DNA of 64,000 nucleotides from IMG/VR virus record IMGVR_UViG_3300043172_001414, one strand, 5' to 3'. Below the pieces are notes generated by a model. That model was not told the DNA's origin, ran no database searches, and worked only from the letters and a program-made list of their open reading frames with translations. Shown one piece after another: positions 9,259-63,158 of the stretch. This DNA comes from a virus (Duplodnaviria; Heunggongvirae; Uroviricota; Caudoviricetes). The translations under genes and the position numbers were made by a program. Positions within the stretch are counted from its first letter, which is position 1. Each line of letters opens with the position of its first letter.

Positions 9259-12200
9259 TTAAACTGATGGCAATCCTGCATTTATAGTATTTACTTCAGT
9301 CTGAGTTGCCGCACCACAATAATACGATATGTTCCTAATTACAGTATCTATCTGTGTTGTTGTTGTATCTGCATTAAAAGTTACATCATCATCAGATGAT
9401 ATCATCAAAGACATTGGTAACGAGTTTATTTTGGCTCTAGCACCTGTTGCTTTCTGAAGACCATCAAAATACATCCGTGTAGTACCGCTAACCCAATCAT
9501 TTACCAATTGAACATTTATCCAAACGTCTTTTGTTATAGTATCAGGATCACTCCACGAATTAGGAATACCATTAAGTTTATTAGATGTTACTCTAACACC
9601 TGAAGACCACCCATAACCATTAGCTCTATTAATTGCACCAATGAGTCCTGTACTTGTTGTTGTTTGTGATGAAGTTTTAAATTTAACTTGGAATGATAAT
9701 GTCCATGACTCAAAAGGGTTCAAGTGTGTTTTTTCTGAACCAGTTAAAACGCCATAATCAGTAACCGCATTCATGACAATACCATCATTCTCTACTGAAG
9801 GTGTACCGAACAAATCTATATTAAATCCATTCACAGTATCTACAAGTTGATCTCCAACAATAGCATCACATGCCCATGAATTTACAAGTGCGAGTGTAGG
9901 TAATACAGGAGCCGTTGGTGTATAATCAGACTCTTGATAATATTCAAAATCACCGTTAGCAATAAAAGGAAGTTGTTTATCGAAGTACTCTATGCTCCGT
10001 ATCTCTGCGGTACTGAGTGCTCTATCCCATGACGAAACTTTTACAATCTCATCTTTTGTTATACCGTAATTACTTGGCTCAAAATTTGAATTTGCATCTC
10101 GTGTGTGTTCTGCGAATAATAGGAGTGGTGTGTTTTCGCTTGTAACGTCGAAAGACCGGATGCCTCCTATAATCTCAGAGTCAAATAATCTTGAGTGTGA
10201 CATTCTATATTTAGGAGTCCCACCATCCATGTACGCAGAGTAGGTATAAGTTACCAATTCCTTACCATAGAGGATATCGGTATCAACGCTATCATTCATC
10301 CCAATTGCATTTTTAGTTACTGCTCCTGAATTATGTGGGTTTGCTAATTCTAGTATATCACCCTCAGGTGCGTTAATGTTAGCAATCCACATATTACTGC
10401 TGGTTAAGCCTGTGTGATCAACTGATGCTTTACTATACACATCACGTATAAATGTTATAGACACAGTGAATTCATCTGTGTTCCATAGCTTAGAATCGAC
10501 TAAGTCAACAATAGCTATTTCACCAAGTCCTGTACCACCTATAGATTTTATGCCGTTTCCATAATCATTCCTACGTAGTATGTGATCACAGCGTAGATTT
10601 TTTAAATTTGGTATTGATAGATCGGTTCCTTTATTTTCTATATACTCAACTGACTCTGTAGGTTCATCTCGATAAACTATTGTTGTATCATCAATCGCAT
10701 CAAAATATGCATCGGCTGTTAATCTAGGATCTGTATATGTAGGTAGTAAATTTAACCCATCTAAGATACTATCATAAAGATCAGACCACCTTCTACAAAT
10801 TCTATAATATTGGGCAATAGATGGGTGGGAAATGTCCGAAAATCTTTTCCAGTTTTCCCATGATGGAAATCTTGGATCGTCATTAAATGCATCAGCTTGT
10901 GACGCTCCGTTAATATCATTGTAAACCCACCAATGACGTTCATCTAGTGATGAATTCCATATATCATTAATAATTGAAGAGTTATAAGTTGCTTTTATCT
11001 GATCGTCGACAGGCTTCATGTACAGATATGCAGGTGTGGTCAAGTGATCAACACCACCATCTAGAACACCTTGTGGTATTGTACCACTCAATATCATTGG
11101 CACATTAAAGGAATCACATATTGCTTTTTCAGCTGCTAAAGCATCCATATATTCAGAGTAAACTTCTGGGCCTTCGTAGTATTCAGCACCCACCCAATTC
11201 TGTGTAAGTGATCTACTGTATATGTTACATAAACATCTATCTACGACGTGATTAACATTGGAAGTTGAGTGACCTATTGTTTCCCATTCTAATAGGTCTG
11301 GTCGTCCACCTGTTGTATACGCTGGTGCGGTGTAGTCATCTGGTACAGATACATCATAGAAGGTTCTACCACCATAATTAGCTACCATCATAAACACATC
11401 ATCACCATCACCATATCCATAGTATAAGTAGTGGTTATTCAGGTAACGATATACACCACCGCCAGTAGAATCACCACTAAAAGGAATCATGAAAGAGAAG
11501 TAAACATTATAAAAGAAAGCATCTTTATGTTTATTATCAAACATTTTATCGTAGTATCTATCATGATGACAATACCCATTTAGATAATTATCAAAAGTGC
11601 TTGCACCTGTTCTTCGGCAGTGCTTAACTATAGTACTTGTATTGCTTTGTGCACCTGTTACATCAAATGCATCAATCAATACTTCACCGTCAAACCATAC
11701 TGTTATTTCTTTGCTAGTTGAATTGTACTTCAGTGTGATAAAATTGTAAATATCTGCTTCCTGTGTTGCAATAACTCCACAACTAACACCGCCATATACT
11801 AGTGACAATTCACCTGTACCATTCATGTTTATTTCTGTTTCATTTCCAGATCCATTAATACCTTTAGATAGTAGAGTGCCAATTTCTAAAGTTGTTACTC
11901 GATCTGTTAGGTGATAAGTCCAATCTGAACCTGTAGGCATCCAAGCCTCAGAGCCAACTATTTCAATCTTATCGTCAACACCATTAAAAGAAGATTCATA
12001 CCGTATAGCAGGTACGAAGTCGTCACCGTTATTGACCCACCAAGCTCTTTCACGTTGGTACATTGTTTGACCATTATAAAATCGTCTAGACAGTGAACCT
12101 GTGTTTGGCTGATCTGGATCGTATGTAAGTTTATTAGTTCCCGAACCAGTCATTGCGATTGAAACACCGCTCTGAGTATCTTGTTTAGGTGTGACTGTTG

Positions 12201-21793: not shown

Positions 21794-21840
21794 ACAAAAA
21801 TGTGATATACTTTAGTTGAACTCTGCCCTCAAGGATCTTT

Positions 21841-53884: not shown

Positions 53885-53919
53885 TTGACATCAGTACATA
53901 TTTATTGTATACTTTAGTT
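53885..53919 (+). promoter_or_regulatory. Sigma70-type promoter TTGACA-17-TATACT followed by TTAGTT, at the head of the tRNA island
   Basis: The spacer contains CAGTACATA; candidate tRNA-cluster promoter. Confidence 0.55.
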
Positions 53920-54185: not shown

Positions 54186-54258
54186 CGCTACCGTAGCTCA
54201 GTTGGCAGAGCGCCATATTTGTATTATGGATGTCACGGGTTCGATGCCTGTCGGTAGC
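54186..54258 (+). tRNA. tRNA-Thr (anticodon TGT)
   Basis: Hand-folded cloverleaf: acceptor GCTACCG/CGGTAGC, D-loop AGTTGGCA, anticodon loop TTTGTAT, T-arm ACGGGTTCGATGCCTGT. Confidence 0.8.
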
Positions 54259-54318
54259 TTAATATCAGTTCGATAGCAATCTGTTGCTTTTATAAATACT
54301 CATAAATAAGAGATATTT

Positions 54319-54960
54319 ATGAAAACAGATTGCACTAAAACTGATGGGTGGAAAGCCGCTCAAATAAAAACTAAAGTAACTTGCAAAGAAAAAACAAGAT
54401 TATTTAAATTAAATTATTTGGAGACTCCCAATTTATGTAAACAGTGTAGTTGTAAACTACCATTCGAAAAGAGATCCAATAAATTTTGCTCTCATAGTTG
54501 TTCAGCGTCATTTAATAATAAGGGCGTTAGAAGGCATGGGTATGAAAATATATTGGAATTCTGTCTACACTGCAATACAAAATTGACAACCCAAAAAAAG
54601 TTTTGTGATATTGATTGTAAAAATGATTATTATCACCAACAGTTTTTATTACAATGGAAATGTGGAAATCATAACGGGCTTAGAGGTGAATATAATCTAT
54701 CTGCCCATATAAGAAGATACATATTTGAAAAATATGATAGTAAATGCTGTCAATGTGGATGGGATGAAAAACACCCTTCTGATGGAAAAATACCATTAGA
54801 TATAGATCATATTGACGGTGATTATAATAATAATAATGAAGATAATTTAAGATTATTATGCCCTAATTGTCATTCATTAACACTAACATATAAATCCAGA
54901 AATAAAAACGGTAGAAAACAAAGAAAAAAATATTATAAAAAATGTGCGTTGCAATTGTGA
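54319..54960 (+). CDS. HNH homing endonuclease
   Basis: CQCGW…DIDHIDGDYNNNNEDNLRLLCPNCH. Confidence 0.75.
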   Translation: MKTDCTKTDGWKAAQIKTKVTCKEKTRLFKLNYLETPNLCKQCSCKLPFEKRSNKFCSHSCSASFNNKGVRRHGYENILEFCLHCNTKLTTQKKFCDIDCKNDYYHQQFLLQWKCGNHNGLRGEYNLSAHIRRYIFEKYDSKCCQCGWDEKHPSDGKIPLDIDHIDGDYNNNNEDNLRLLCPNCHSLTLTYKSRNKNGRKQRKKYYKKCALQL

Positions 54961-55260
54961 CTTACTTCGTTTTTCATTAACATGAAAGAAATCAAGGTTC
55001 AATTCCTTGTTTCCCCACCTGGTAGATTCTGTCTATCCGGTGGGGAAATAGCCCAATTGGTAGAGGCAATTCAAATTCAGTTATGATGATTTTTACCATA
55101 TTTTTTATTTTAAACATTTTTAAAAATGTGTGTTGCAAATTTGACTTACTTCGGATAAAAAAAACAATTCTAATGTTAATATCTTGGTTCAAATCCAGGA
55201 ACCGCCACTAAGTGGATAATGTCTATTTGGTGGCGGTTTAAAATAAATCAGTCATGTTAC
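54937..55260 (+). repeat. Tandem duplicated about 100-nt module: 33-nt direct repeat, T-arm-like hairpin and a 9-10 bp stem-loop (possible small stable RNAs)
   Basis: Direct repeat aaaaatgtgYgttgcaaWttgtgacttacttcg at about 54937 and 55122. Hairpins at about 55010-55048 and 55200-55238, each preceded by GGTTCAA(T/A)TCC, with loops sharing TGTCTAT. Confidence 0.5.
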
Positions 55261-55283
55261 CCTTTACCACATTTTTAATTATT

Positions 55284-55355
55284 GGTCGTATCGTCCAGTG
55301 GTTAGGACAGCAGCTTTTCAAGCTGAAAACCGGAGTTCAATTCTCCGTACGACTA
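55284..55355 (+). tRNA. tRNA-Glu (anticodon TTC)
   Basis: Acceptor GGTCGTA/TACGACT, D-stem GTCC/GGAC, anticodon loop TTTTCAA, T-arm CGGAGTTCAATTCTCCG. Confidence 0.7.
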
Positions 55356-55358
55356 TTA

Positions 55359-55431
55359 TGCGAGGAAGAGCAGTCCGGTCGCTTGCTGGCCTCATAAGCC
55401 AGAGTCCGTAGGTTCAAATCCTACCCTCCGC
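55359..55431 (+). tRNA. tRNA with CAT anticodon (Met or Ile2), imperfect acceptor and D stems
   Basis: Anticodon arm CTGGC-CTCATAA-GCCAG and T-arm GTAGGTTCAAATCCTAC; two A-C mismatches in the acceptor stem. Confidence 0.5.
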
Positions 55432-55450
55432 TATTATATTAATAAAACTT

Positions 55451-55525
55451 TGCAGGATCGAACAGTCTGGACGTTCAAATGGCTCATAACCATTATAGAC
55501 GGTGGTTCAAATCCACCTCCTGCTA
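55451..55525 (+). tRNA. tRNA with CAT anticodon (initiator-like, unpaired 1:72)
   Basis: Anticodon arm AATGG-CTCATAA-CCATT, D-stem GAAC/GTTC, T-arm GGTGGTTCAAATCCACC; T1-T72 mismatch. Confidence 0.6.
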
Positions 55526-55534
55526 TTTTTTTAT

Positions 55535-55607
55535 TGGCGTGTAGCACAACTGGAAGTGCACCACCCTTTGACGGTGAAGGTTGTCAGTTCGAGTCTGACC
55601 ACGCCAT
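55535..55607 (+). tRNA. tRNA-Gln (anticodon TTG)
   Basis: Acceptor TGGCGTG/CACGCCA (U1:A72 as in bacterial tRNA-Gln), D-stem GCAC/GTGC, anticodon loop CTTTGAC, T-arm GTCAGTTCGAGTCTGAC. Confidence 0.8.
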
Positions 55608-55610
55608 TCT

Positions 55611-55695
55611 GGAAGGTACTGACCAATGGTGGTCAAGCAGTTTTGAACGCTGTGGCGTGGGTGAAACCACGGGGGTTCGATTCCTCTACTTTCCT
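55611..55695 (+). tRNA. tRNA-Ser (anticodon TGA), type II
   Basis: Acceptor GGAAGGT/ACTTTCC, D-stem TGAC/GTCA, anticodon loop TTTGAAC, long variable arm CGTGG-GTGAAA-CCACG, T-loop TTCGATT. Confidence 0.65.
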
Positions 55696-55745
55696 TACAG
55701 ATGTACAAGAATAAGACCCCTCATCTATAAAAATTGGGGTCACGA

Positions 55746-55822
55746 GCCGGATTAGCTCAGCCTGGTTAGAGCGGAACCTTCATACGGTTTGTCTGTCACT
55801 GGTTCAAATCCAGTATCCGGTA
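55746..55822 (+). tRNA. tRNA with CAT anticodon (third copy)
   Basis: Acceptor GCCGGAT/ATCCGGT, D-arm GCTC-AGCCTGGTTA-GAGC, anticodon loop TTCATAC, T-arm ACTGGTTCAAATCCAGT. Confidence 0.7.
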
Positions 55823-55827
55823 CTATA

Positions 55828-55901
55828 GGGGTCATAGCTTAGTTGGCTAAAGCACTTGCCTGTCACGCAAGAGATCGTCGGTTCGAGTCCGTCTGTCCTC
55901 G
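55828..55901 (+). tRNA. tRNA-Asp (anticodon GTC)
   Basis: D-arm GCTT-AGTTGGCTA-AAGC, anticodon arm CTTGC-CTGTCAC-GCAAG, T-loop TTCGAGT, discriminator G. Confidence 0.7.
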
Positions 55902-55916
55902 TTTTAAAGGAACAAC

Positions 55917-56192
55917 ATGAGAGAGTACAATATTTTATTATCGCAGACCCAGCAGAGAGCGTATGAAAATATAAAATCTGCTAAAAAAGTAATATGGTAT
56001 GTAGCAGAACATAAAGCTTTTTTACATAAATCTAAAACTGAAGTAAACATGAATACATTTATGTCACTCCTTATAATAGGATTACTAAAATGGAACAGAA
56101 CAGTTAGTCATCATTATGATATGGAAGAATATATCATAGATGAAAATACAGAAAAATTATTAACTAAATACTTGACTATAACTGAAAAATAG
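55917..56192 (+). CDS. Hypothetical protein
   Basis: 91-aa ORF within the tRNA island. Confidence 0.35.
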   Translation: MREYNILLSQTQQRAYENIKSAKKVIWYVAEHKAFLHKSKTEVNMNTFMSLLIIGLLKWNRTVSHHYDMEEYIIDENTEKLLTKYLTITEK

Positions 56193-56229
56193 TATATAAT
56201 ATTTATATACTATCAAACGGAATAATATT

Positions 56230-56598
56230 ATGAACGAACATACAATTTACTATCATTTTAGATACGCAGGGCCTTTTGGAAAACTAGCGGTTGGTGCTAA
56301 TAAGCTCGAACCTGTACTTCAGTTTACACCTATAAAAAACCCACACAGTAATGGTGGAGTTACAATCGCTGTAAGAGAGAGTGGAGATAATCTATTCTTT
56401 GGTGTTGCTAAATGCGCTCTATCAGATACTTATAGCAAAAGTTATGGAAGAGTACGAGCTGAAGGTATCAGTAGAAGTGCAAAATCTCTCAGAACCGAGA
56501 AGATGGATAAAGACGACATCACCAAAACTGCAGTTGAATTAGCTCAGTTGGTAGGTAGCAGATTCAGCCTTGAAGACGCTGTTTCACAATTAGCTTAA
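56230..56598 (+). CDS. Hypothetical protein
   Basis: 122-aa ORF. Confidence 0.4.
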   Translation: MNEHTIYYHFRYAGPFGKLAVGANKLEPVLQFTPIKNPHSNGGVTIAVRESGDNLFFGVAKCALSDTYSKSYGRVRAEGISRSAKSLRTEKMDKDDITKTAVELAQLVGSRFSLEDAVSQLA

Positions 56599-56765
56599 GG
56601 TACTCACAGTACCTATCCTCCAAAAAGTTACTCATATTACTTTTCAAAAAATTGAGTGGATGAGATTACAAGCCTCTCCATTATAAAAAACTTGTTCTCC
56701 TTTCGTTATAAATGATGGTCAGTTGCTGCTTGCAGTAACTGACCTTTTTAATAAAGGAAAATCAA

Positions 56766-56850
56766 TGGCGAATATCCGAGTTGGTAGCAGGAGGCGCACT
56801 GTTAATGCGTTGGAGAAATCCCACCGTAGGTTCGAGTCCTACTTTGCCAG
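56766..56850 (+). tRNA. Type-II-shaped tRNA with GTT (Asn) anticodon and discriminator G
   Basis: Acceptor TGGCGAA/TTTGCCA, 3-bp D-stem, anticodon arm GCGCA-CTGTTAA-TGCGT, 15-nt variable region, T-arm GTAGGTTCGAGTCCTAC. Confidence 0.5.
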
Positions 56851-56896
56851 TTTTTAACATTTATACATACTCATATAGTTTATTGGTAACATTGAT

Positions 56897-57508
56897 ATGA
56901 GTAAAATTAACAAAGAATTAAGCATAGCAGATAGACAAGCCTTAGGTGCTAGATGCACAAAGGAACATATTATAAATGCTTTCGGAAATTGTTGCACTGT
57001 ATGTGGATATAATAAAAGTCCTGCGGTTTTAGCGTTTCACCATATCAATCCTGGTGAAAAAGAAACCTCATTTGCATCAAAATTAATGACAAAAAAAATA
57101 TGGCCTCGCCTGGTTAAAGAATTAAGAAAATGTATTTTAGTTTGTCATAACTGCCACGCTGAGATACATCAAGGGATAACTAAAGTACCAAGGAACGCTA
57201 TCCAGTTTGATGAACTATATTCTTTGTATTGGGTTGAAGATAAACATTCCGATAAATGCGTTTGTGGAAATAAAAAAGAAATATGGAAACAAACATGTTC
57301 TGAAAAATGTACTAGAGTTATTAGAGGCATAAAAATATCGCACAGCAAAACTAATTTAAAATGGAAAGACATTGATTTGATTAATGAACTAAAAACTCAA
57401 ACCATATCTGAGTTATCCCGTTCACTGGGCTGTGGATGGGATACAGTAAAAAGAAATTATGACAAACAAAAAGAGGTTTGCAATGTCAATGAAGTTAGAC
57501 ACATTTAG
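56897..57508 (+). CDS. HNH homing endonuclease
   Basis: CTVCGY…AFHHINP…LVCHNCH. Confidence 0.75.
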   Translation: MSKINKELSIADRQALGARCTKEHIINAFGNCCTVCGYNKSPAVLAFHHINPGEKETSFASKLMTKKIWPRLVKELRKCILVCHNCHAEIHQGITKVPRNAIQFDELYSLYWVEDKHSDKCVCGNKKEIWKQTCSEKCTRVIRGIKISHSKTNLKWKDIDLINELKTQTISELSRSLGCGWDTVKRNYDKQKEVCNVNEVRHI

Positions 57509-57734
57509 AAATCTAAGCGAACGATTATTTGACGAACGGCTTAGACTAGAGTTTTATTATAACGAAATTAAAGATTGCAATCGAGTAATATCAATTGGTC
57601 TTCGTGAATATAACATCACTCTTAAAGATGGAAGAAAACTAACAAACAAAGATTTTATGAACTCTTTAGATTTCAATGTTAAATTTAAATGTGAGATGGA
57701 TCTTAGATATGTACTGGACAGGAGAATTTACTAA
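57459..57734 (+). CDS. Hypothetical protein
   Basis: 91-aa ORF overlapping the HNH gene's 3' end. Confidence 0.3.
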   Translation: MTNKKRFAMSMKLDTFRNLSERLFDERLRLEFYYNEIKDCNRVISIGLREYNITLKDGRKLTNKDFMNSLDFNVKFKCEMDLRYVLDRRIY

Positions 57735-58045
57735 TGAAATATTTGCATTGTAGGATAGCAGACTGGGGAGAATTAGTAGACTGGTTTGAGATTGATTATA
57801 ATGATGATGACAGCATTAACGCAGAAGAAGTAAGAAAGAAATTGAGCGCCATTATTCTAGAGACTACTGGCAACCCATCTGAAGTAACAAAATTTCAGAT
57901 AGGCCAACTTCGTAAGTATGTTAAAGCAATAGCTAAAGCAGACACGAGTTACCCTAGACCAATATGGATAGGGCTATCTAAAATAAAAGATGATTATACA
58001 TTTATTCAATTTCTTAGTACACTATTGGAGCATTTATGGGTGTAG
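57734..58045 (+). CDS. Hypothetical protein
   Basis: 103-aa ORF. Confidence 0.35.
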   Translation: MKYLHCRIADWGELVDWFEIDYNDDDSINAEEVRKKLSAIILETTGNPSEVTKFQIGQLRKYVKAIAKADTSYPRPIWIGLSKIKDDYTFIQFLSTLLEHLWV

Positions 58046-58242
58046 AGGATTACATATCTTTAACAGATAAACAAATAAAATTAATTGATGACTGGACTAA
58101 TCATCACATTTGTATATCAGCTGATAATAATAAACCGATATGGTTTAACAAAACATCCGATGTAGATGTCGGAAAAACTTTAAAAATTAAATGTGGTTTC
58201 TGTGATACTGAATATGATATTACAGATATCGACACATGGTAG
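58036..58242 (+). CDS. Hypothetical small protein
   Basis: 68-aa ORF. Confidence 0.3.
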   Translation: MGVEDYISLTDKQIKLIDDWTNHHICISADNNKPIWFNKTSDVDVGKTLKIKCGFCDTEYDITDIDTW

Positions 58243-58323
58243 GAATATGTCTGAAATAATAATAATAATATTTTTTATTGTATATAGCCTCTATGTGGAA
58301 TACAATAAATACAAGTAAAGCAC

Positions 58324-58410
58324 GGGTATGTGCGCACTGTTGGTAAGTGTAGCGAGGCTGTAACCCTCGTGGCTTAATCTCCTACGGGGGTTCGAATCCC
58401 TTCATGCCCA
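58324..58410 (+). tRNA. tRNA-Tyr (anticodon GTA), type II; D-region irregular
   Basis: Acceptor GGGTATG/CATGCCC, anticodon arm CGAGG-CTGTAAC-CCTCG, long variable arm, T-loop TTCGAAT, followed by a T-run. Confidence 0.6.
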
Positions 58411-58418
58411 TTTTTTAA

Positions 58419-58910
58419 TTGAGGAATAGTATGACATTTTTTGTTAGCGGTCATAGAGATATAACCACAAAAGAATTTGAAGAACATTATATTCCAACAC
58501 TCGATATGATAATCGAAAACAACGAACATGTTGTTGTAGGTGATTGTCCTGGCGTTGACGAAATGACCCTTAACTATTTATGGGAAAAAGGTCATCGAAA
58601 AGCGACAGTATATTATATCGGGTTGCGACCAATGAACAACCCTGGCTTTGCCGGAGTTAACTATTGGTTCGACTCAGATGAAAATAAACATATTAGCAAT
58701 ACTTTTATTTTAGATTCTGATACAAGACGAGATTTCGTAATGACCATGAATTCAGATCAAGACATTGCCTGGCTAAGAGAAGGTAATGAAAGATCTGGAA
58801 CAGGAATGAATGTTTTAAGACGAGAATGGCTGATTGAAGAAGATGCTGACCTCACTTACGATTCACTCTATGAAAAATGGGAAATTAATGAAGCTAATCA
58901 ATACATTTAA
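58419..58910 (+). CDS. Putative LOG/SLOG (DprA/YpsA-like Rossmann) domain protein
   Basis: FFVSGHR … GDCPGVDEMTLNYL resembles the LOG-family PGGxGTxxE motif; 163 aa. Confidence 0.35.
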   Translation: MRNSMTFFVSGHRDITTKEFEEHYIPTLDMIIENNEHVVVGDCPGVDEMTLNYLWEKGHRKATVYYIGLRPMNNPGFAGVNYWFDSDENKHISNTFILDSDTRRDFVMTMNSDQDIAWLREGNERSGTGMNVLRREWLIEEDADLTYDSLYEKWEINEANQYI

Positions 58911-58911
58911 T

Positions 58912-58983
58912 GGGTTGTGCTCAGGGTAAGCGGAAAATCTTTGCAAGATTTTTGCCTGATCGGTTCGATTCCGATACGATCCA
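58912..58983 (+). tRNA. tRNA-Ala-like (anticodon TGC), D-arm not resolved
   Basis: Acceptor GGGTTGT/ACGATCC (two G-U pairs), anticodon arm AAATC-TTTGCAA-GATTT, T-arm ATCGGTTCGATTCCGAT. Confidence 0.5.
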
Positions 58984-59090
58984 CTTTTAACAGCCGTAGT
59001 TGCAAAAGACTGTTACACCCAAAGCTTATTGTGAACCTGAAGGAACATTACTGTTTTAATTGGGAACCGCTTTGTAAGAAGACTATGCCA

Positions 59091-59165
59091 GCACCAGTAA
59101 CTCAGTCCGGTCAGAGTCCCTGATTTCCAATCAGGTGGTCGGGAGTTCGAATCTCCCCTGGTGCT
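59091..59165 (+). tRNA. tRNA-Gly (anticodon TCC)
   Basis: Acceptor GCACCAG/CTGGTGC, D-stem ACTC/GAGT, anticodon arm CCTGA-TTTCCAA-TCAGG, T-arm GGGAGTTCGAATCTCCC. Confidence 0.8.
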
Positions 59166-59201
59166 TTATTCCGTTAATAATAAATTGAAAAAGGAAAATA
59201 T

Positions 59202-59879
59202 ATGACAAGACCAAATTTTACCGAAATAATAGCAATCATTGATAGATCAGGATCTATGCAGTCGCTAACACCAGAAACTATTTCTGGATACAACTCATTT
59301 CTTAAAGAACAAAAAGAAATCGAAGATGAAACAAATATATCCTTAGTTCTATTTAACCATACTCATGAATACATTTATGATAATGTACCAATTAAGAAAG
59401 TTAAAAAACTAAAGAAACAAATCTATATGGCTCATGGTATGACAGCTATGAACGATGCCATTGGTACTGCAATCACAACAGCTGGTGCTCGTCTAGCAAA
59501 GATGGAAGAACATGAAAGACCAAGCAAGGTAATAGTTCTCATCATCACTGACGGTCAAGAAAACAGCTCAAGAGAATACAGAACATCTCAAATCAAAGAG
59601 ATGATTGATAAGCAACAAAATACTTACTCGTGGGAATTCATATTCCTTGGAGCTAATATAGATGTGGATCAATATGCTGCAGACTATGGTTTCAAAGCAG
59701 GTAAATTTGCCATGTACGATCAATCAAGCAAAGGCACTACCGCAGTATTTGATTCTATGTCAACCGCTGTAACCAATGAAAGAGGCTTTAGTATTGATGA
59801 CTCTGGTGAACGGACAAGATCTGCAGGAACTGTAAATTATAGCATGGACACCATATACACAAAATCGATGAATAAATAA
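59202..59879 (+). CDS. von Willebrand factor type A (vWA) domain protein
   Basis: MIDAS motif (IIDRSGSM), TDGQEN; 225 aa. Confidence 0.65.
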   Translation: MTRPNFTEIIAIIDRSGSMQSLTPETISGYNSFLKEQKEIEDETNISLVLFNHTHEYIYDNVPIKKVKKLKKQIYMAHGMTAMNDAIGTAITTAGARLAKMEEHERPSKVIVLIITDGQENSSREYRTSQIKEMIDKQQNTYSWEFIFLGANIDVDQYAADYGFKAGKFAMYDQSSKGTTAVFDSMSTAVTNERGFSIDDSGERTRSAGTVNYSMDTIYTKSMNK

Positions 59880-59881
59880 TC

Positions 59882-59923
59882 AACTAAAGTATAGCAGTTG
59901 TCAATAAATGTTATACTTTAGTT
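59882..59923. repeat. 12-bp perfect inverted repeat AACTAAAGTATA / TATACTTTAGTT with an 18-nt spacer
   Basis: Lies between the vWA gene and tRNA-His; the arms are copies of a recurrent genome motif. Confidence 0.55.
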
Positions 59924-59929
59924 TTCGCC

Positions 59930-60002
59930 CCCGTGATAGTTCAACTGGTTAGAACCTCGGCCTGTGAAGCCGGTAATCTCGGCTCGATTCCGAGTCACTG
60001 GA
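59930..60002 (+). tRNA. tRNA-His (anticodon GTG), one acceptor mismatch
   Basis: D-arm GTTC-AACTGGTTA-GAAC, anticodon arm TCGGC-CTGTGAA-GCCGG, T-arm CTCGGCTCGATTCCGAG. Confidence 0.6.
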
Positions 60003-60015
60003 CTTTGGAGGATTT

Positions 60016-60246
60016 ATGAGTAGAAGTTTTAAATACAGACCGTTCTATAGTAAACACAATGATTTCAAAGAACTGAAACACGTCAATAAGTCATACCGTT
60101 TACACATGAAAAATCTCATCGTGTCAGAACGAATAGATCTAATTCACAAGGAATACCATAAACATAAAAGTGATTGGATGTGGGGATATGGTGGCTCATA
60201 TATAAGTCACCTTAGTGATGATTACGATAAAGCAATGAGGAAGTAA
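60016..60246 (+). CDS. Hypothetical small basic protein
   Basis: 76-aa ORF. Confidence 0.35.
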   Translation: MSRSFKYRPFYSKHNDFKELKHVNKSYRLHMKNLIVSERIDLIHKEYHKHKSDWMWGYGGSYISHLSDDYDKAMRK

Positions 60247-60247
60247 T

Positions 60248-60478
60248 ATGTTTTGGCCCTTTATGAAATCAAAAAAGAAAGAAGTGGAAGAGAATCCGTC
60301 ATACTCTATAGTACTATCATCTGAACAAGCAATAAAAGTATTGATCTGGAAAGGACAACACGATTGTACTTCAGTTAATGTATCTAAAAGAAAGATTTGG
60401 ATGAGACAAGATAAAATTGGAAAAAAGAAAGTAACAACAATAAAATGTGATATGTGCTCAAAGGTACATGTACTATAG
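60248..60478 (+). CDS. Hypothetical small protein
   Basis: 76-aa ORF. Confidence 0.35.
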   Translation: MFWPFMKSKKKEVEENPSYSIVLSSEQAIKVLIWKGQHDCTSVNVSKRKIWMRQDKIGKKKVTTIKCDMCSKVHVL

Positions 60479-60550
60479 GTGTGTGGCCCAGTTGGTTGGG
60501 GCAATACTCTGATAAGGTAAAGGACGCTGGTTCGATCCCAGCCACACCTA
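60477..60550 (+). tRNA. tRNA-Ile (anticodon GAT)
   Basis: Acceptor AGGTGTG/CACACCT (A1:U72 as in bacterial tRNA-Ile), D-arm GCCC-AGTTGGTTG-GGGC, anticodon loop CTGATAA, T-arm GCTGGTTCGATCCCAGC. Confidence 0.7.
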
Positions 60551-60574
60551 CTTATTATAAAAGAAGGACGAGAG

Positions 60575-61138
60575 ATGGAAGAGATAAAAGGAAATGATGT
60601 AAAATTTAAAGATAGTTTGAAGATTAATTTTTTAGGTGTGGCAATACTCAAACAAGACTTTGTATTCGAACACACTTATAAGACCGAGTGGAAAGGCAAG
60701 AGCACTATTGAGACCAACTATAATGACACCATATACACACACAATCATACTATCAAACATAAGGTCGTCCAATGTTCAGACCTTCCAGCTGATGAAACAC
60801 ATTACAGACGATTCGCAGAAAAACCTAAATATCATTGCTACCTTTTACTCGACATTGGAAGCATCTTATCTCAACCCATTATATTCTGGTCAATGGAATA
60901 TAAGACAGAACGGTCAGTACGAGAAATGATTGAACTTTGTAACAATACAGCTAAAGCAGTTATGAAGAAAAGAACTGCAAAGAAAACTACAGTGATGGCA
61001 AATGTAATTGCAGATTTTAAACTAAAGTATGGCAAAGAAAAAATACCCATCAGAATGATTACTGCAGACTTTGCAGTTAAGAAACATCTTCCTGGAATAG
61101 CAAGGGAAGCACATAGAAATCAGAAACAATTTATTTAA
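60575..61138 (+). CDS. Hypothetical protein
   Basis: 187-aa ORF. Confidence 0.4.
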   Translation: MEEIKGNDVKFKDSLKINFLGVAILKQDFVFEHTYKTEWKGKSTIETNYNDTIYTHNHTIKHKVVQCSDLPADETHYRRFAEKPKYHCYLLLDIGSILSQPIIFWSMEYKTERSVREMIELCNNTAKAVMKKRTAKKTTVMANVIADFKLKYGKEKIPIRMITADFAVKKHLPGIAREAHRNQKQFI

Positions 61139-61177
61139 TACTTTAGTTTAAATATACAATTCAATATACTTTAGTTT

Positions 61178-61310
61178 GCTATATTGGTCTGAAGCAGGAT
61201 GGAGGATACAGAAATGTATCGGTTACTCTGGGGACGGAGTTTCATGCTTTCGGCAAGACATATCTTCGGTAATACAAGGTAGGACATGGGTTCGACTCCC
61301 ATATATAGCT
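61178..61310 (+). ncRNA. 133-nt tRNA-like RNA: perfect 7-bp acceptor pairing plus canonical T-arm, but about 60 extra internal nucleotides
   Basis: 5' GCTATAT pairs with 3' ATATAGC; T-arm ATGGGTTCGACTCCCAT; internal GATAC/GTATC hairpin; no canonical cloverleaf fits. Confidence 0.4.
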
Positions 61311-61314
61311 TAAC

Positions 61315-61388
61315 GGGTTTCTAGCTCAATTGGTTAGAGCAGCAGTCTCATAATCTGCAGGTACTGGGTTCGATCCCCAGGAAGCCCA
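61315..61388 (+). tRNA. tRNA with CAT anticodon (fourth copy; Met or Ile2)
   Basis: Acceptor GGGTTTC/GAAGCCC, D-arm GCTC-AATTGGTTA-GAGC, anticodon loop CTCATAA, T-arm CTGGGTTCGATCCCCAG. Confidence 0.7.
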
Positions 61389-61400
61389 TAATATAATCAC

Positions 61401-61475
61401 AGCCGTGTAGCTCAGTTGGTCTAGAGCAGCACTCTTACAAAGTGAAGGTCGGGAGTTCGACTCTCCCCTCGGCTA
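61401..61475 (+). tRNA. tRNA-Val (anticodon TAC)
   Basis: D-arm GCTC-AGTTGGTCTA-GAGC, anticodon arm GCACT-CTTACAA-AGTGA, T-arm GGGAGTTCGACTCTCCC; one acceptor mismatch. Confidence 0.7.
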
Positions 61476-61490
61476 TTAACAAGGAATAAC

Positions 61491-61700
61491 ATGCACCCAT
61501 TAAAAGAAGCTTACAATGCCAGTAATGAAGGCATAAAAGACATGAAAGAAGTCATAGCGGAACATGAGAAAAATAAAAATGAAACACCGTCAATGATCAA
61601 ATTCTATGATGAACAAATTGAAAAGTATAACAAAATAATTCAATCTCTCGAAAACATAAACAGAGAGATTGAAAAACATGATAAGTTTCATGCATGGTAA
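61491..61700 (+). CDS. Hypothetical small protein
   Basis: 69-aa ORF between tRNAs. Confidence 0.35.
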   Translation: MHPLKEAYNASNEGIKDMKEVIAEHEKNKNETPSMIKFYDEQIEKYNKIIQSLENINREIEKHDKFHAW

Positions 61701-61706
61701 ATTATT

Positions 61707-61779
61707 GCAGCCGTAGCTCAGCAGGTAGAGCAGGAAACTGAAAATTTCTGTGTCACTGGTTCAATTCCGGTCGGTTGCA
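61707..61779 (+). tRNA. tRNA-Phe (anticodon GAA)
   Basis: Acceptor GCAGCCG/CGGTTGC, D-arm GCTC-AGCAGGTA-GAGC, anticodon arm GGAAA-CTGAAAA-TTTCT, T-loop TTCAATT. Confidence 0.8.
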
Positions 61780-61798
61780 TTTATATTGAGGAGGGCTT

Positions 61799-62065
61799 AT
61801 GCCACAACTAAGAAGAATCCCTGACGGGATAGGCGACTCAGGAGCACGCTCTGAAGCCATCAAATGGAATGCTGACGGCACGCTTGATGAGATTGTAGGG
61901 CGTAGACCAGTCGTTGGTTGTTCGATGCTTGTAGGCTCTCTCACAGCCCGTAGTTACAGCGGTCAAGATTACTGGTTAACTACCGTAGTAACTGAAGTAC
62001 TTGAAGAAAGGGAAGATTATGTCAAGTTTAAAACTGAGAATTCCATCTACGAATGGATAATTTAA
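61799..62065 (+). CDS. Hypothetical protein
   Basis: 88-aa ORF, relatively GC-rich. Confidence 0.35.
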   Translation: MPQLRRIPDGIGDSGARSEAIKWNADGTLDEIVGRRPVVGCSMLVGSLTARSYSGQDYWLTTVVTEVLEEREDYVKFKTENSIYEWII

Positions 62066-62150
62066 TAACAATCGTAAAATGTGATTAACATCACTGCCTA
62101 TATAATATTAATTTGTATCTTATATTATATAAATTAAATATGGTTTTATT

Positions 62151-62927
62151 ATGAAATTACAATTTTTAGGTTCTGGAAACGCTTTCACATTACTAAACTA
62201 TCAGTCTGCAGCAATGTTAACTCATAATGATAAGAACTTTCTTATTGATTGTGGTAGTGATACACGATTCAGCGCTGATAAGTGTGGCTTTACATTCTCT
62301 GATATTGATGCGGTTTATGTATCTCACCTTCACGGTGATCATATAGGTGGACTTGAATGGTTAGGATTTACTACCTATTTCACACCAAATGTTGATAGAC
62401 CAAAACTCTTTATTGAGAAGGCATTAATATCAGACTTGTGGTTATCTCTTAAAGGTGGAATGGAAAGCCTACAAGGTAAGATAGCTACACTTGATACATA
62501 CTTTGAAGTTATGCCCATCGAAGTCAACCATCCATTTAATTGGAATGGTATCAGCTTTGATGCAGTACAAACACTGCACATAACAAACAAGTATAAGCAT
62601 GTACCAAGCTATGGTTTAATGTGGTCAACCGAAGAAGACAAACGAGCTTACTTTACAACTGATTGTCAGTACGCTCCCGAATCTTCAATGATGGCATTCT
62701 ACAAAGAAGCTGATTATATCTTCCATGACTGTGAAACTGCACCATATGAATCTGGTGTTCACGCTCATTATAATCAGCTAAAGCAATTACCGGAAGAAGT
62801 TAAAAATAAAATGCACTTGTATCATTATCAAGATAATATTATCGAAGATTTTGAGAACAAAAGCAAAGAAGCAAATTGTGATGGCTTCATGGGATTTGTC
62901 CGCAAGGGAGCTATCATAACATTATAA
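62151..62927 (+). CDS. Metallo-beta-lactamase-fold hydrolase (RNase Z/ElaC-like or cyclic-nucleotide-hydrolase-like)
   Basis: HxHxDH motif (VSHLHGDHIGG) and downstream His/Asp ligands; 258 aa; embedded in the tRNA island. Confidence 0.7.
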   Translation: MKLQFLGSGNAFTLLNYQSAAMLTHNDKNFLIDCGSDTRFSADKCGFTFSDIDAVYVSHLHGDHIGGLEWLGFTTYFTPNVDRPKLFIEKALISDLWLSLKGGMESLQGKIATLDTYFEVMPIEVNHPFNWNGISFDAVQTLHITNKYKHVPSYGLMWSTEEDKRAYFTTDCQYAPESSMMAFYKEADYIFHDCETAPYESGVHAHYNQLKQLPEEVKNKMHLYHYQDNIIEDFENKSKEANCDGFMGFVRKGAIITL

Positions 62928-62932
62928 ACAAT

Positions 62933-63005
62933 GGGTGTGTAACTCAGTTGGTAGAGTACTAAACTTTTAATTTAGGAGCCGTGTGTTCAATCCTCACCAC
63001 ACCCA
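62933..63005 (+). tRNA. tRNA-Lys (anticodon TTT)
   Basis: Acceptor GGGTGTG/CACACCC, D-stem ACTC/GAGT, anticodon arm CTAAA-CTTTTAA-TTTAG, T-loop TTCAATC. Confidence 0.75.
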
Positions 63006-63094
63006 TTTTTTTATAATAAATAATCATCCAGCCTTATAATCATCAACTAAAGATTAGTCCTCATCAACTAAAGTTTAGTCAATCCGTCCCATAG

Positions 63095-63158
63095 CCAAGT
63101 CCGGCTAAGGCAACTGTTTGCAACGCAGTCATCGTGAGTTCGAATCCCACTGGGACGT
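63095..63158 (+). tRNA. tRNA-Cys (anticodon GCA)
   Basis: Acceptor CGTCCCA/TGGGACG, anticodon arm ACTGT-TTGCAAC-GCAGT, T-loop TTCGAAT. Confidence 0.6.

Follow-up and report, generated by a model that had tools for sequence, protein, structure and literature searches.

A probable tRNA-derived, non-decoding structured RNA encoded in the tRNA array of a large uncultured phage

The DNA analyzed here, referred to throughout as the window, is a stretch of 64,000 nucleotides (nt) from a virus of the Caudoviricetes (IMG/VR record IMGVR_UViG_3300043172_001414). Inside an array of transfer RNA (tRNA) genes it carries an oversized tRNA-shaped element (61178-61310, + strand) made up of 132 nt and a discriminator U. 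We consider it probable that this element is the gene for a tRNA-derived, non-decoding structured small RNA, an analogue of the species 1 RNA (rnaC) of phage T4. A preliminary description of the window had left three options for the element, namely a tRNA with an insertion in the variable region, an intron-containing tRNA, or a novel tRNA-like small RNA, and the last of these proved to be the best fit.

Ends of the element

The 5' strand of the acceptor stem, GCUAUAU (61178-61184), pairs with AUAUAGC at 61303-61309 in seven of seven Watson-Crick pairs. The 3' strand and the discriminator U (61303-61310, with T at 61310) directly abut a canonical T-arm, AUGGG-UUCGACU-CCCAU (61286-61302), and no CCA is encoded. 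As in tRNA, a 7-base-pair (bp) acceptor stem is continuous with a 5-bp T-stem bearing a 7-nt T-loop of the form UUCRANY, and the tRNA-like ends reported in the preliminary description were in this way confirmed. The T-arm also matches that of the transfer-messenger RNA (tmRNA) model.

We wrote a scan to detect 5-bp T-arms that have an NTCRANN loop and whose next 7 nt pair perfectly with a 7-mer 95-200 nt upstream; on both strands of the window, its sole match was the element. By an estimate of our own, rather than the output of a tool, seven Watson-Crick pairs would arise by chance in that distance range with a probability of approximately 0.25^7 x 126 = 0.008. Nothing was called at 61178-61310 by default ARAGORN, and Rfam at its gathering thresholds gave no match there. 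With the element alone as query, RF00005 had no match even at E<=10, and at the same cut-off the Rfam families, including ribozymes, riboswitches and intron families, gave only matches at the level of the T-arm. The preliminary description had allowed that software might find a standard tRNA in another register; none was called by default ARAGORN or by Rfam.

A cloverleaf with an insertion in the D-loop

According to the preliminary description, the interior of the element could not be folded as a cloverleaf. This view was not upheld, as a D-stem, an anticodon-position arm and a 4-nt variable loop were recovered both by RNAalifold and by covariance-model alignment to real tRNAs. Three folds, namely the minimum free energy (MFE) structure of the window copy, the RNAalifold consensus of this copy and the homologue described below (on contig L008), and a manual model, were concordant. 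In all of them the interior is a cloverleaf, and the excess length is a 56-nt Y-shaped module within the D-loop.

In the numbering used here, position 1 is 61178; the acceptor stem occupies positions 1-7/126-132 and the T-arm positions 109-125. The acceptor strand is followed by the linker U8 G9 (positions 8-9) and by a 4-bp D-stem, GUCU/AGAC, formed between 61187-61190 and 61256-61259 (positions 10-13/79-82), which was found by RNAalifold and is aligned by the covariance model to the D-stems of real tRNAs. After G14 and A15 comes the Y-shaped insertion (61193-61248), consisting of stem A and two hairpins. Stem A (AGCA/UGCU, 4 bp; 61193-61196 with 61245-61248, positions 16-19/68-71) bears both hairpins. 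Hairpin 1, GAUACA-GAAA-UGUAUC (61205-61220, positions 28-43), has 6 bp and a GNRA tetraloop, and hairpin 2, ACUCUG-GGGA-CGGAGU (61225-61240, positions 48-63), is likewise closed by a GNRA tetraloop, its inner 4 bp being kept as pairs. The GATAC-N6-GTATC hairpin that had been put forward as a possible anticodon-like arm does exist, but it is the GAAA-capped hairpin 1 and belongs to the insertion.

The 3' part of the D-loop, UUCGGCA in the window (61249-61255, positions 72-78) and GUUGGAAA in L008, holds analogues of G18, G19 and A21. Owing to the insertion the D-loop measures 65 nt, compared with approximately 7-11 nt in canonical tRNA, with the D-stem and GG..A present. An A (position 83) stands at the equivalent of position 26. 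In the anticodon-position arm (61261-61281, positions 84-89/99-104), 6 bp (UAUCUU/AAGGUA) enclose a 9-nt loop, CGGUAAUAC, so that there is neither a U33 nor a 7-nt loop. The variable loop, GGAC (61282-61285, positions 105-108; AGAU in L008), is 4 nt long and ends in a pyrimidine at the Y48 position; the extra length is in the D-loop, and not in the variable region as one of the three earlier options would have it.

Some resemblances noticed within this fold were judged to be due to chance. The sequence GUAAUA in the third loop resembles the 1095 loop of 23S ribosomal RNA and is absent from L008, as is a potential kissing interaction of the anticodon-position loop with the junction that links hairpins 1 and 2. 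The stretch CUGAnnCnGGAU resembles the 5' region of tmRNA, where its position is not equivalent.

A syntenic homologue keeps every helix

Upstream of the element lies an open reading frame (ORF) of 187 amino acids, for which a collection of 5.8 billion proteins held just five relatives. A 71%-identical relative of this protein is carried by contig L008, and a syntenic, 130-nt homologue of the element was located there at 11257-11386, after paralogous ORFs and 7 nt before a tRNA-Met gene. In this region L008 is identical to the IMG/VR locus L013. The two RNA copies are about 72% identical, a value comparable to the 65-91% of the orthologous tRNAs and the 73-74% of the flanking coding DNA.

The preliminary description had proposed a covariation analysis across related phages, and this was carried out on the two copies. 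All 35 of the proposed pairs form in both; seven are changed on both sides (two each in the acceptor stem, hairpin 2 and the anticodon-position arm, and one in hairpin 1), one is changed on one side, and no pair is lost. The 15 substituted stem positions, those of the insertion included, have thus left every pair intact at about 28% divergence. In L008, acceptor pairs 6 and 7 are altered from A-U to G-C and from U-A to G.U, and the second pair of hairpin 1 from A-U to U-A, with an identical loop. Hairpin 2 has two pairs altered on both sides and one on one side around an identical GGGA loop. The anticodon-position arm reads UGGCU / 8-nt loop AACGGGCC / AGUCA and remains in register with two pairs altered on both sides, and the T-arm is identical except for two loop bases. 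Identical or equivalent in both copies are the GAAA and GGGA tetraloops, a 16-nt stretch (UGGUCUGAAGCAGGAU) and the GG..A of the D-loop.

As a control, the 3' partners were slid by 1-3 columns, which gave 31-46% pairing and 0-1 compensatory pairs; in column shuffles the observed values were reached in 3 of 500. The preservation of every helix in a syntenic homologue, with compensatory changes, is the strongest evidence that the element exceeds chance, and the lack of any disruptive stem substitution at this divergence argues against neutral decay. The hairpins of the insertion appear to be under selection for pairing. As it is drawn from two sequences, the covariation suggests these helices and is not conclusive for them.

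Derivation from tRNA

A covariance model (R1) was built from the window and L008 copies, which it scores, by construction, at 151 and 148 bits. The model matched ordinary tRNAs from end to end upon skipping about 57 nt, at a place where tRNAs have 0-1 nt. In this alignment the D-stem of the element falls on the D-stems of tRNAs and UUGGaaA falls on the D-loop UUGG..A (G18 G19 ... A21), which places the insertion in the variable alpha region of the D-loop. This region of tRNA is solvent-exposed at the elbow. The top tRNA match, at 41 bits, was a phage tRNA-Cys(GCA) (L032, 4702-4773) that was also found independently by a pattern scan, and whose acceptor, T-arm and U73 are nearly identical to those of the element. 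When the insertion was deleted in silico, default ARAGORN called the L008 construct as a cloverleaf, giving it 8 nt in the anticodon loop and 'cggg' as a 4-base anticodon.

Judged by its sequence, the element is derived from a tRNA. It has in common with canonical tRNA the 7-bp acceptor, U8, the 4-bp D-stem, G18G19 and A21, a purine at position 26, a 4-nt variable loop ending in a pyrimidine, the T-arm and the discriminator U73, and like its neighbours it encodes no CCA. It differs from canonical tRNA in the structured 56-nt insertion, in having G rather than A at position 14, in an anticodon loop of 8-9 nt without U33, and in going uncalled by default ARAGORN and by RF00005.

Comparison with T4 species 1 RNA

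The tRNA cluster of T4 holds two further RNA genes, rnaC (species 1 RNA, 139 nt), which the T4 genome annotation lists as a small stable RNA, and rnaD. The roles of both were stated to be unknown in papers from 2010, 2022 and 2025 (PMC3014915, PMC9697503, PMC12685909). We aligned T4 rnaC with four diverged relatives and obtained a consensus of 46 pairs, 19 of which show compensatory changes. In this consensus the acceptor has two conserved U.U mismatches, a 3-bp D-stem (AGG/CCU) surrounds a long hairpin of variable sequence, GG stands just before the 3' strand of the D-stem, a 10-bp hairpin at the anticodon position carries a conserved CGUCAA loop, and the T-arm is canonical.

Both RNAs are thus approximately 130-140 nt long and encoded in a phage tRNA cluster, and both combine a 7-bp acceptor stacked on a canonical T-arm with a D-stem around a large insertion and an anticodon-position hairpin without a 7-nt loop. 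The two also differ. Whereas the insertion of rnaC is one long hairpin of variable sequence, that of the element is a conserved Y with two GNRA hairpins; the conserved part of rnaC is the anticodon-position hairpin with its CGUCAA loop, and the same arm is the variable part of the element. The acceptor of the element is fully paired, unlike that of rnaC. Model R1 matched T4 rnaC only partially (17.9 bits, E 0.064), and the conserved AGCGUCAACU hairpin motif of rnaC is absent from the element. Homology to rnaC was rejected, as the common architecture is accompanied by no sequence or profile similarity, either with R1 or by BLASTN against INPHARED. A common ground plan without detectable similarity, and with the pattern of conservation reversed, makes the element an analogue of rnaC and not a member of its family.

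Proposed role of the RNA

Under the reading that we favour, the element would be transcribed with the tRNA array, possibly from a recurrent 9-mer, ATACTTTAG, that lies 4 nt upstream. The host tRNA maturation machinery would release and stabilize it, by RNase P if there is any leader, 3' trimming and CCA addition. The product would fold into an L shape with the Y-module projecting from the elbow, the tRNA body serving as a chassis and the Y-module as the functional payload, and in this form it would bind, titrate or redirect a factor that recognizes tRNA shape. On the analogy drawn here, the preferred target would be an immune nuclease of the host that targets tRNA, or an enzyme that processes or modifies tRNA; this choice is speculative.

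The design logic would be that of engineered 'tRNA scaffold' RNAs, in which the payload is likewise an inserted module and the tRNA body sees to its processing and stability. Such scaffolds are man-made, with a foreign RNA displayed in a tRNA body for stable expression, and the insert replaces the anticodon arm; the element differs from them in being natural and in having its insert in the D-loop. With the tRNA-like domain of tmRNA and with YrlA the element has in common that it does not decode and that the acceptor, T-arm and elbow of tRNA are kept with other arms replaced. It differs from these in having no G3.U70, no tag ORF and no pseudoknots, and in Rfam scores far under threshold. YrlA (RF02553) scored 22.3 bits against a gathering threshold of 69, and the match covers the T-arm of the element and the D-arm of the next tRNA.

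Several observations weigh against this interpretation. Just two distinct sequences are available, so that the covariation statistics are weak, and the D-stem, stem A and T-stem are invariant between them; because these stems never vary, they carry no covariation support, and covariation speaks neither for nor against them. The MFE z-scores are modest (window copy, -1.79; L008, -2.31), and the thermodynamic optimum of L008 has an alternative anticodon-position hairpin, UGGCU-AACG-GGCCA. A third related lineage (L010, L011) is without the element, which is therefore dispensable. Searches for further copies yielded little. An exact 28-mer and three degenerate patterns, run against IMG/VR, recovered the L008-type copy (L013), one normal tRNA-Cys and nothing else. 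A scan of JGI metagenomes gave 14 matches, all of them chance 12-mers inside genes or upstream of ordinary tRNAs, and a scan of GTDB genomes gave three, all due to chance. A BLASTN search of 61100-61400 against INPHARED had no matches other than ordinary tRNA genes, which aligned with the T-arm end of the element and with the neighbouring tRNA-Met. Finally, the proposed function is arrived at by analogy, and the analogue itself, T4 rnaC, has no known function.

Some of these points would also suit a decaying tRNA pseudogene that has acquired an insertion and is itself functionless. The degenerate anticodon loop, the lineage without the element and the very small size of the family are what such a gene would show, and oversized tRNA-like genes are often flagged 'Pseudo' in phage annotations. 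We nevertheless regard this explanation as unlikely, because it does not account for the absence of broken pairs in stems changed at 15 positions, insertion included, for the retention of both GNRA loops, GG..A and the T-loop, or for an identity equal to that of the adjacent functional tRNAs. The insertion is single-copy in all sequence examined and is neither a repeat nor a mobile element; a mobile-element origin was rejected for this reason.

Upstream motif and expression context

The 9-mer ATACTTTAG occurs 11 times in the window, where 1.03 occurrences are expected, and none of 100 shuffles reached 11. Two copies precede the element on the + strand. The first (61138-61146) is a candidate -10-like element of a phage promoter, and the second (61166-61174), which contains TATACT, ends 4 nt before the first base of the element. 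In L008, the homologue is preceded by one copy that ends 5 nt away. The motif is also found a few nt before tRNA-His in the window and tRNA-Phe in L008, and in four related contigs it lies 22-34 nt ahead of several ATG codons. As part of TTGACA-17-TATACT it occurs at 53885-53913, just past a terminator-like hairpin and ahead of the first tRNA. From this distribution we infer that copy 2 is a candidate promoter, with transcription starting at or within a few nt of 61178. The element is likely co-transcribed with tRNA-Met(CAU) (61315-61388) and tRNA-Val(UAC) (61401-61475), which lie downstream on the same strand and begin 4 nt past it.

An extended form of the motif, (T)ATACTTTAG(TT), has other sites in the window, for example at 21807, 53909 and 59913, and is present in L008, L009, L010 and L012 as well. 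Often a TTGACA or TTGTCA stands close by, with variable spacing, or the motif forms an inverted repeat (59884-/59913+); it is probably a phage promoter or a regulator-binding site.

Since the element comes right behind a promoter-like motif and opens a run of tRNAs and small ORFs, a role exclusively in cis has to be considered. As punctuation or leader, the element would direct cleavage by RNase P or RNase Z, or stabilize the transcript of the downstream tRNA-Met, tRNA-Val and small ORFs, and for this it would need just the determinants of tRNA shape and its helices. We consider such a role improbable, since the ordinary tRNAs of the array already give processing sites every few hundred bases, and since it leaves unexplained the invariance of the 16-nt UGGUCUGAAGCAGGAU, of hairpin 1 and of both tetraloops.

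Decoding, intron, tmRNA and peptide-coding readings

A genuine decoding tRNA would require that the insertion is tolerated or removed, and that the 8-9-nt loop reads quadruplets or frameshift sites, or supplies Arg or Trp specificity. The near-canonical cloverleaf that results once the insertion is deleted, and the call of the L008 construct by default ARAGORN, are in keeping with this, as are the retained nucleotides of the tertiary core and a shell like that of tRNA-Cys, with U73 and a 4-nt variable loop. In addition, no tRNA-Arg or tRNA-Trp is present in the array stretches read (window, L012 and L008). The anticodon-position loops tell against it: at 9 nt (CGGUAAUAC) and 8 nt (AACGGGCC) they differ in length, are unrelated in sequence, and both lack U33 and a conserved purine 37. 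A brute-force search for an anticodon arm of 5 bp and 7 nt, with or without an intron, at a position common to both copies found none. Removal of the insertion is no easier to envisage. Inspection of the RNAalifold fold revealed no bulge-helix-bulge motif flanking the insertion, which at 56 nt falls far short of a group I intron in size, and selection for pairing in its hairpins would be unexpected of a passive intron. On these grounds a decoding tRNA seems quite improbable.

The ARAGORN intron and tmRNA modes suggested in the preliminary description were both run. With introns allowed and the threshold relaxed to 80% (-ps80), ARAGORN reported a 'tRNA-Cys(ACA)' with a 50-nt intron at 37/38 and an 18-nt unpaired variable arm. 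The intron-containing tRNA was rejected, as this geometry is not reproduced in L008, the variable arm is implausible, and the call appeared only at the relaxed threshold. In tmRNA mode there was no call, relaxed threshold included. The Rfam models for tmRNA and permuted tmRNA scored 11.2 and 12.4 bits, both against a gathering threshold of 47 and both with matches at the level of the T-arm, and pair 3:70 is U-A in both copies rather than the G.U of tmRNA. The earlier judgement that the element is not a tmRNA therefore stands.

The 22-codon ORF noted in the preliminary description (MYRLLWGRSFMLSARHIFGNTR*, 61214-61282) is present in the window copy, with a Shine-Dalgarno-like GGAGG 8 nt upstream, but it is not conserved: the homologous ORF in L008 is AUG-UAA, GGAGG is absent there, and the alignment carries frame-breaking 1-nt indels. 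Despite the ORF, its GGAGG and the local T-arm match to tmRNA models, a miniature tmRNA-like or peptide-encoding RNA is effectively refuted by the AUG-UAA of L008, and the tagged-peptide reading was rejected together with that of a tmRNA. Taken on its sequence, the element is not a decoding tRNA, an intron-containing tRNA, a tmRNA or a coding sequence.

The phage, its tRNA array and neighbouring genes

The window comes from a large uncultured phage whose replication genes are of the T4 type; a protein identical to its P0006 is encoded on a 248,963-bp contig. Its gp43-like family-B DNA polymerase is 31-33% identical to the polymerases of cyanomyoviruses and pelagiphage HTVC008M, and its clamp-loader has a Gp44 lid domain. 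The phage also encodes a DnaB-like helicase, a primase, a ribonucleotide reductase and a portal protein.

The tRNA array (54187-63158) contains 18 tRNAs called by default ARAGORN, all on the + strand. An additional tRNA at 55360-55432 (+), with the anticodon loop CAU, was matched by Rfam at 46 bits and not called by default ARAGORN. Together with three ARAGORN tRNA-Met(CAU) genes, it brings the CAU tRNAs of the array to four, presumably of the initiator, elongator and Ile2 types with one spare. None of the tRNAs in the window encodes CCA, so that maturation must proceed by 3' trimming and CCA addition. The gene at 56766-56850 (+) is an 85-nt tRNA-Asn(GUU) with G73 and a class II-like long variable arm (3-bp stem), and its L008 orthologue is an ordinary 72-nt tRNA-Asn. 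In bacteria, long variable arms are found in Leu, Ser and Tyr tRNAs, and the 85-nt gene may be a Tyr- or Ser-type body with an Asn anticodon. In this phage group the array is closely followed by NUDIX hydrolase and NAMPT/NAPRTase genes, the latter for the salvage of nicotinamide adenine dinucleotide (L012, 3357-5705; L008, 14631-16990), and further downstream, past the window end, are tRNA-Pro and two tRNA-Leu genes.

Small ORFs, two HNH endonuclease genes and one Apyc1-family hydrolase gene are interspersed within the array. The HNH homing-endonuclease ORFs (54319-54960 and 56897-57508, both +) are reminiscent of segB in the T4 tRNA cluster. The hydrolase (62151-62927, +) is a 258-amino-acid metallo-beta-lactamase-fold protein of the Apyc1 (anti-Pycsar) family; it matches Apyc1 chains in PDB over its full length (E 3e-29) and RNase Z only over the N-terminal motif (E about 1e-4). 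Its relatives are labelled 'ribonuclease BN (tRNA processing enzyme)' by JGI, and with array tRNAs that encode no CCA its true substrate may be worth a test. The loci of Apyc1 relatives with 41-59% identity contained no tRNA by default ARAGORN (L002-L007) and no element by model R1 (L002-L007 and L035-L037). In one related contig (L036, 5051-6256), a gene for IS605-family OrfB/TnpB (Cas12f-like) adjoins a ParB_N-domain gene close to the Apyc1 gene.

Other oversized tRNA-like genes in phage arrays

Four other phage tRNA arrays were fetched, chosen solely for a tRNA resembling one of those in the window, and all four contain an oversized (110-143 nt) tRNA-like gene inside or at the edge of the array. 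These are a two-piece 'tRNA-Ser AGA' of 143 nt in Sphingomonas phage PAU (L040, 1761-1903), a tRNA-Pseudo of 114 nt in the T4-like Aeromonas phage Ahp1 (L041, 11731-11844), a Pseudo-GCA of 110 nt in the T4-like cyanophage Synechococcus phage B3 (L042, 14589-14698), and a tRNA-Asp of 114 nt in Klebsiella phage FBKp34 (L043, 7605-7718). In the PAU gene the D-arm is canonical, a UAUA tetraloop closes the anticodon arm, and some 67 additional nt precede the T-arm; it is likely a gene for a non-decoding tRNA-bodied RNA rather than an intron-containing tRNA. The Ahp1, B3 and FBKp34 genes have in common UAGCUCAAUGGUAGAGCAACGUAAAAU, followed by a covarying hairpin and by ..CUGCAAU.., after which comes a small hairpin with a 7-nt loop and a differing 'anticodon' (GUU, UCG, GUC). 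To judge from these sequences, the three appear to form a conserved family whose insertions lie in the anticodon region; MAFFT and RNAalifold aligned them poorly.

Like the element, these genes consist of a tRNA body with a large insertion and lie in the tRNA arrays of large phages. Unlike the element, they have canonical D-arms, their insertions are in the anticodon or variable region, and they exceed the Rfam tRNA gathering score (31-51 bits); their sequences are unrelated to it. In genome papers such genes are listed merely as tRNAscan 'Pseudo' (PMC1524935), and a literature search for a described class of such RNAs found nothing specific.

Significance

The element is a second tRNA-bodied RNA, with no detectable similarity to rnaC, from a very distant T4-like jumbo phage. 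Taken with rnaC and with the oversized genes in every other array opened, it suggests that the combination of tRNA body and payload recurs among phages as a design, and is neither an oddity of T4 nor an artefact of annotation. A bolder proposal, which we hold to be rather doubtful, is that the element, T4 rnaC and the PAU, Ahp1, B3 and FBKp34 genes belong to a widespread, unrecognized class of 'tRNA-chassis' RNAs. Members of such a class would use the tRNA body for processing, stability, CCA addition, access to tRNA-binding proteins and perhaps aminoacylation, and would carry a lineage-specific payload at the D-, anticodon- or variable position. The payload would here be the double-GNRA Y-module, which might inhibit or hijack a host factor that recognizes tRNA, such as a tRNA-targeting immune nuclease.

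Genes of this kind are missed by tRNA finders, or mislabelled by them as pseudogenes or intron-containing tRNAs. If the design is recurrent, the old question of rnaC would become open to comparative analysis. If it is true that the Y-module binds a host factor of tRNA-directed defence or processing, an RNA-based player would be added to the conflict between phage and host over tRNA.

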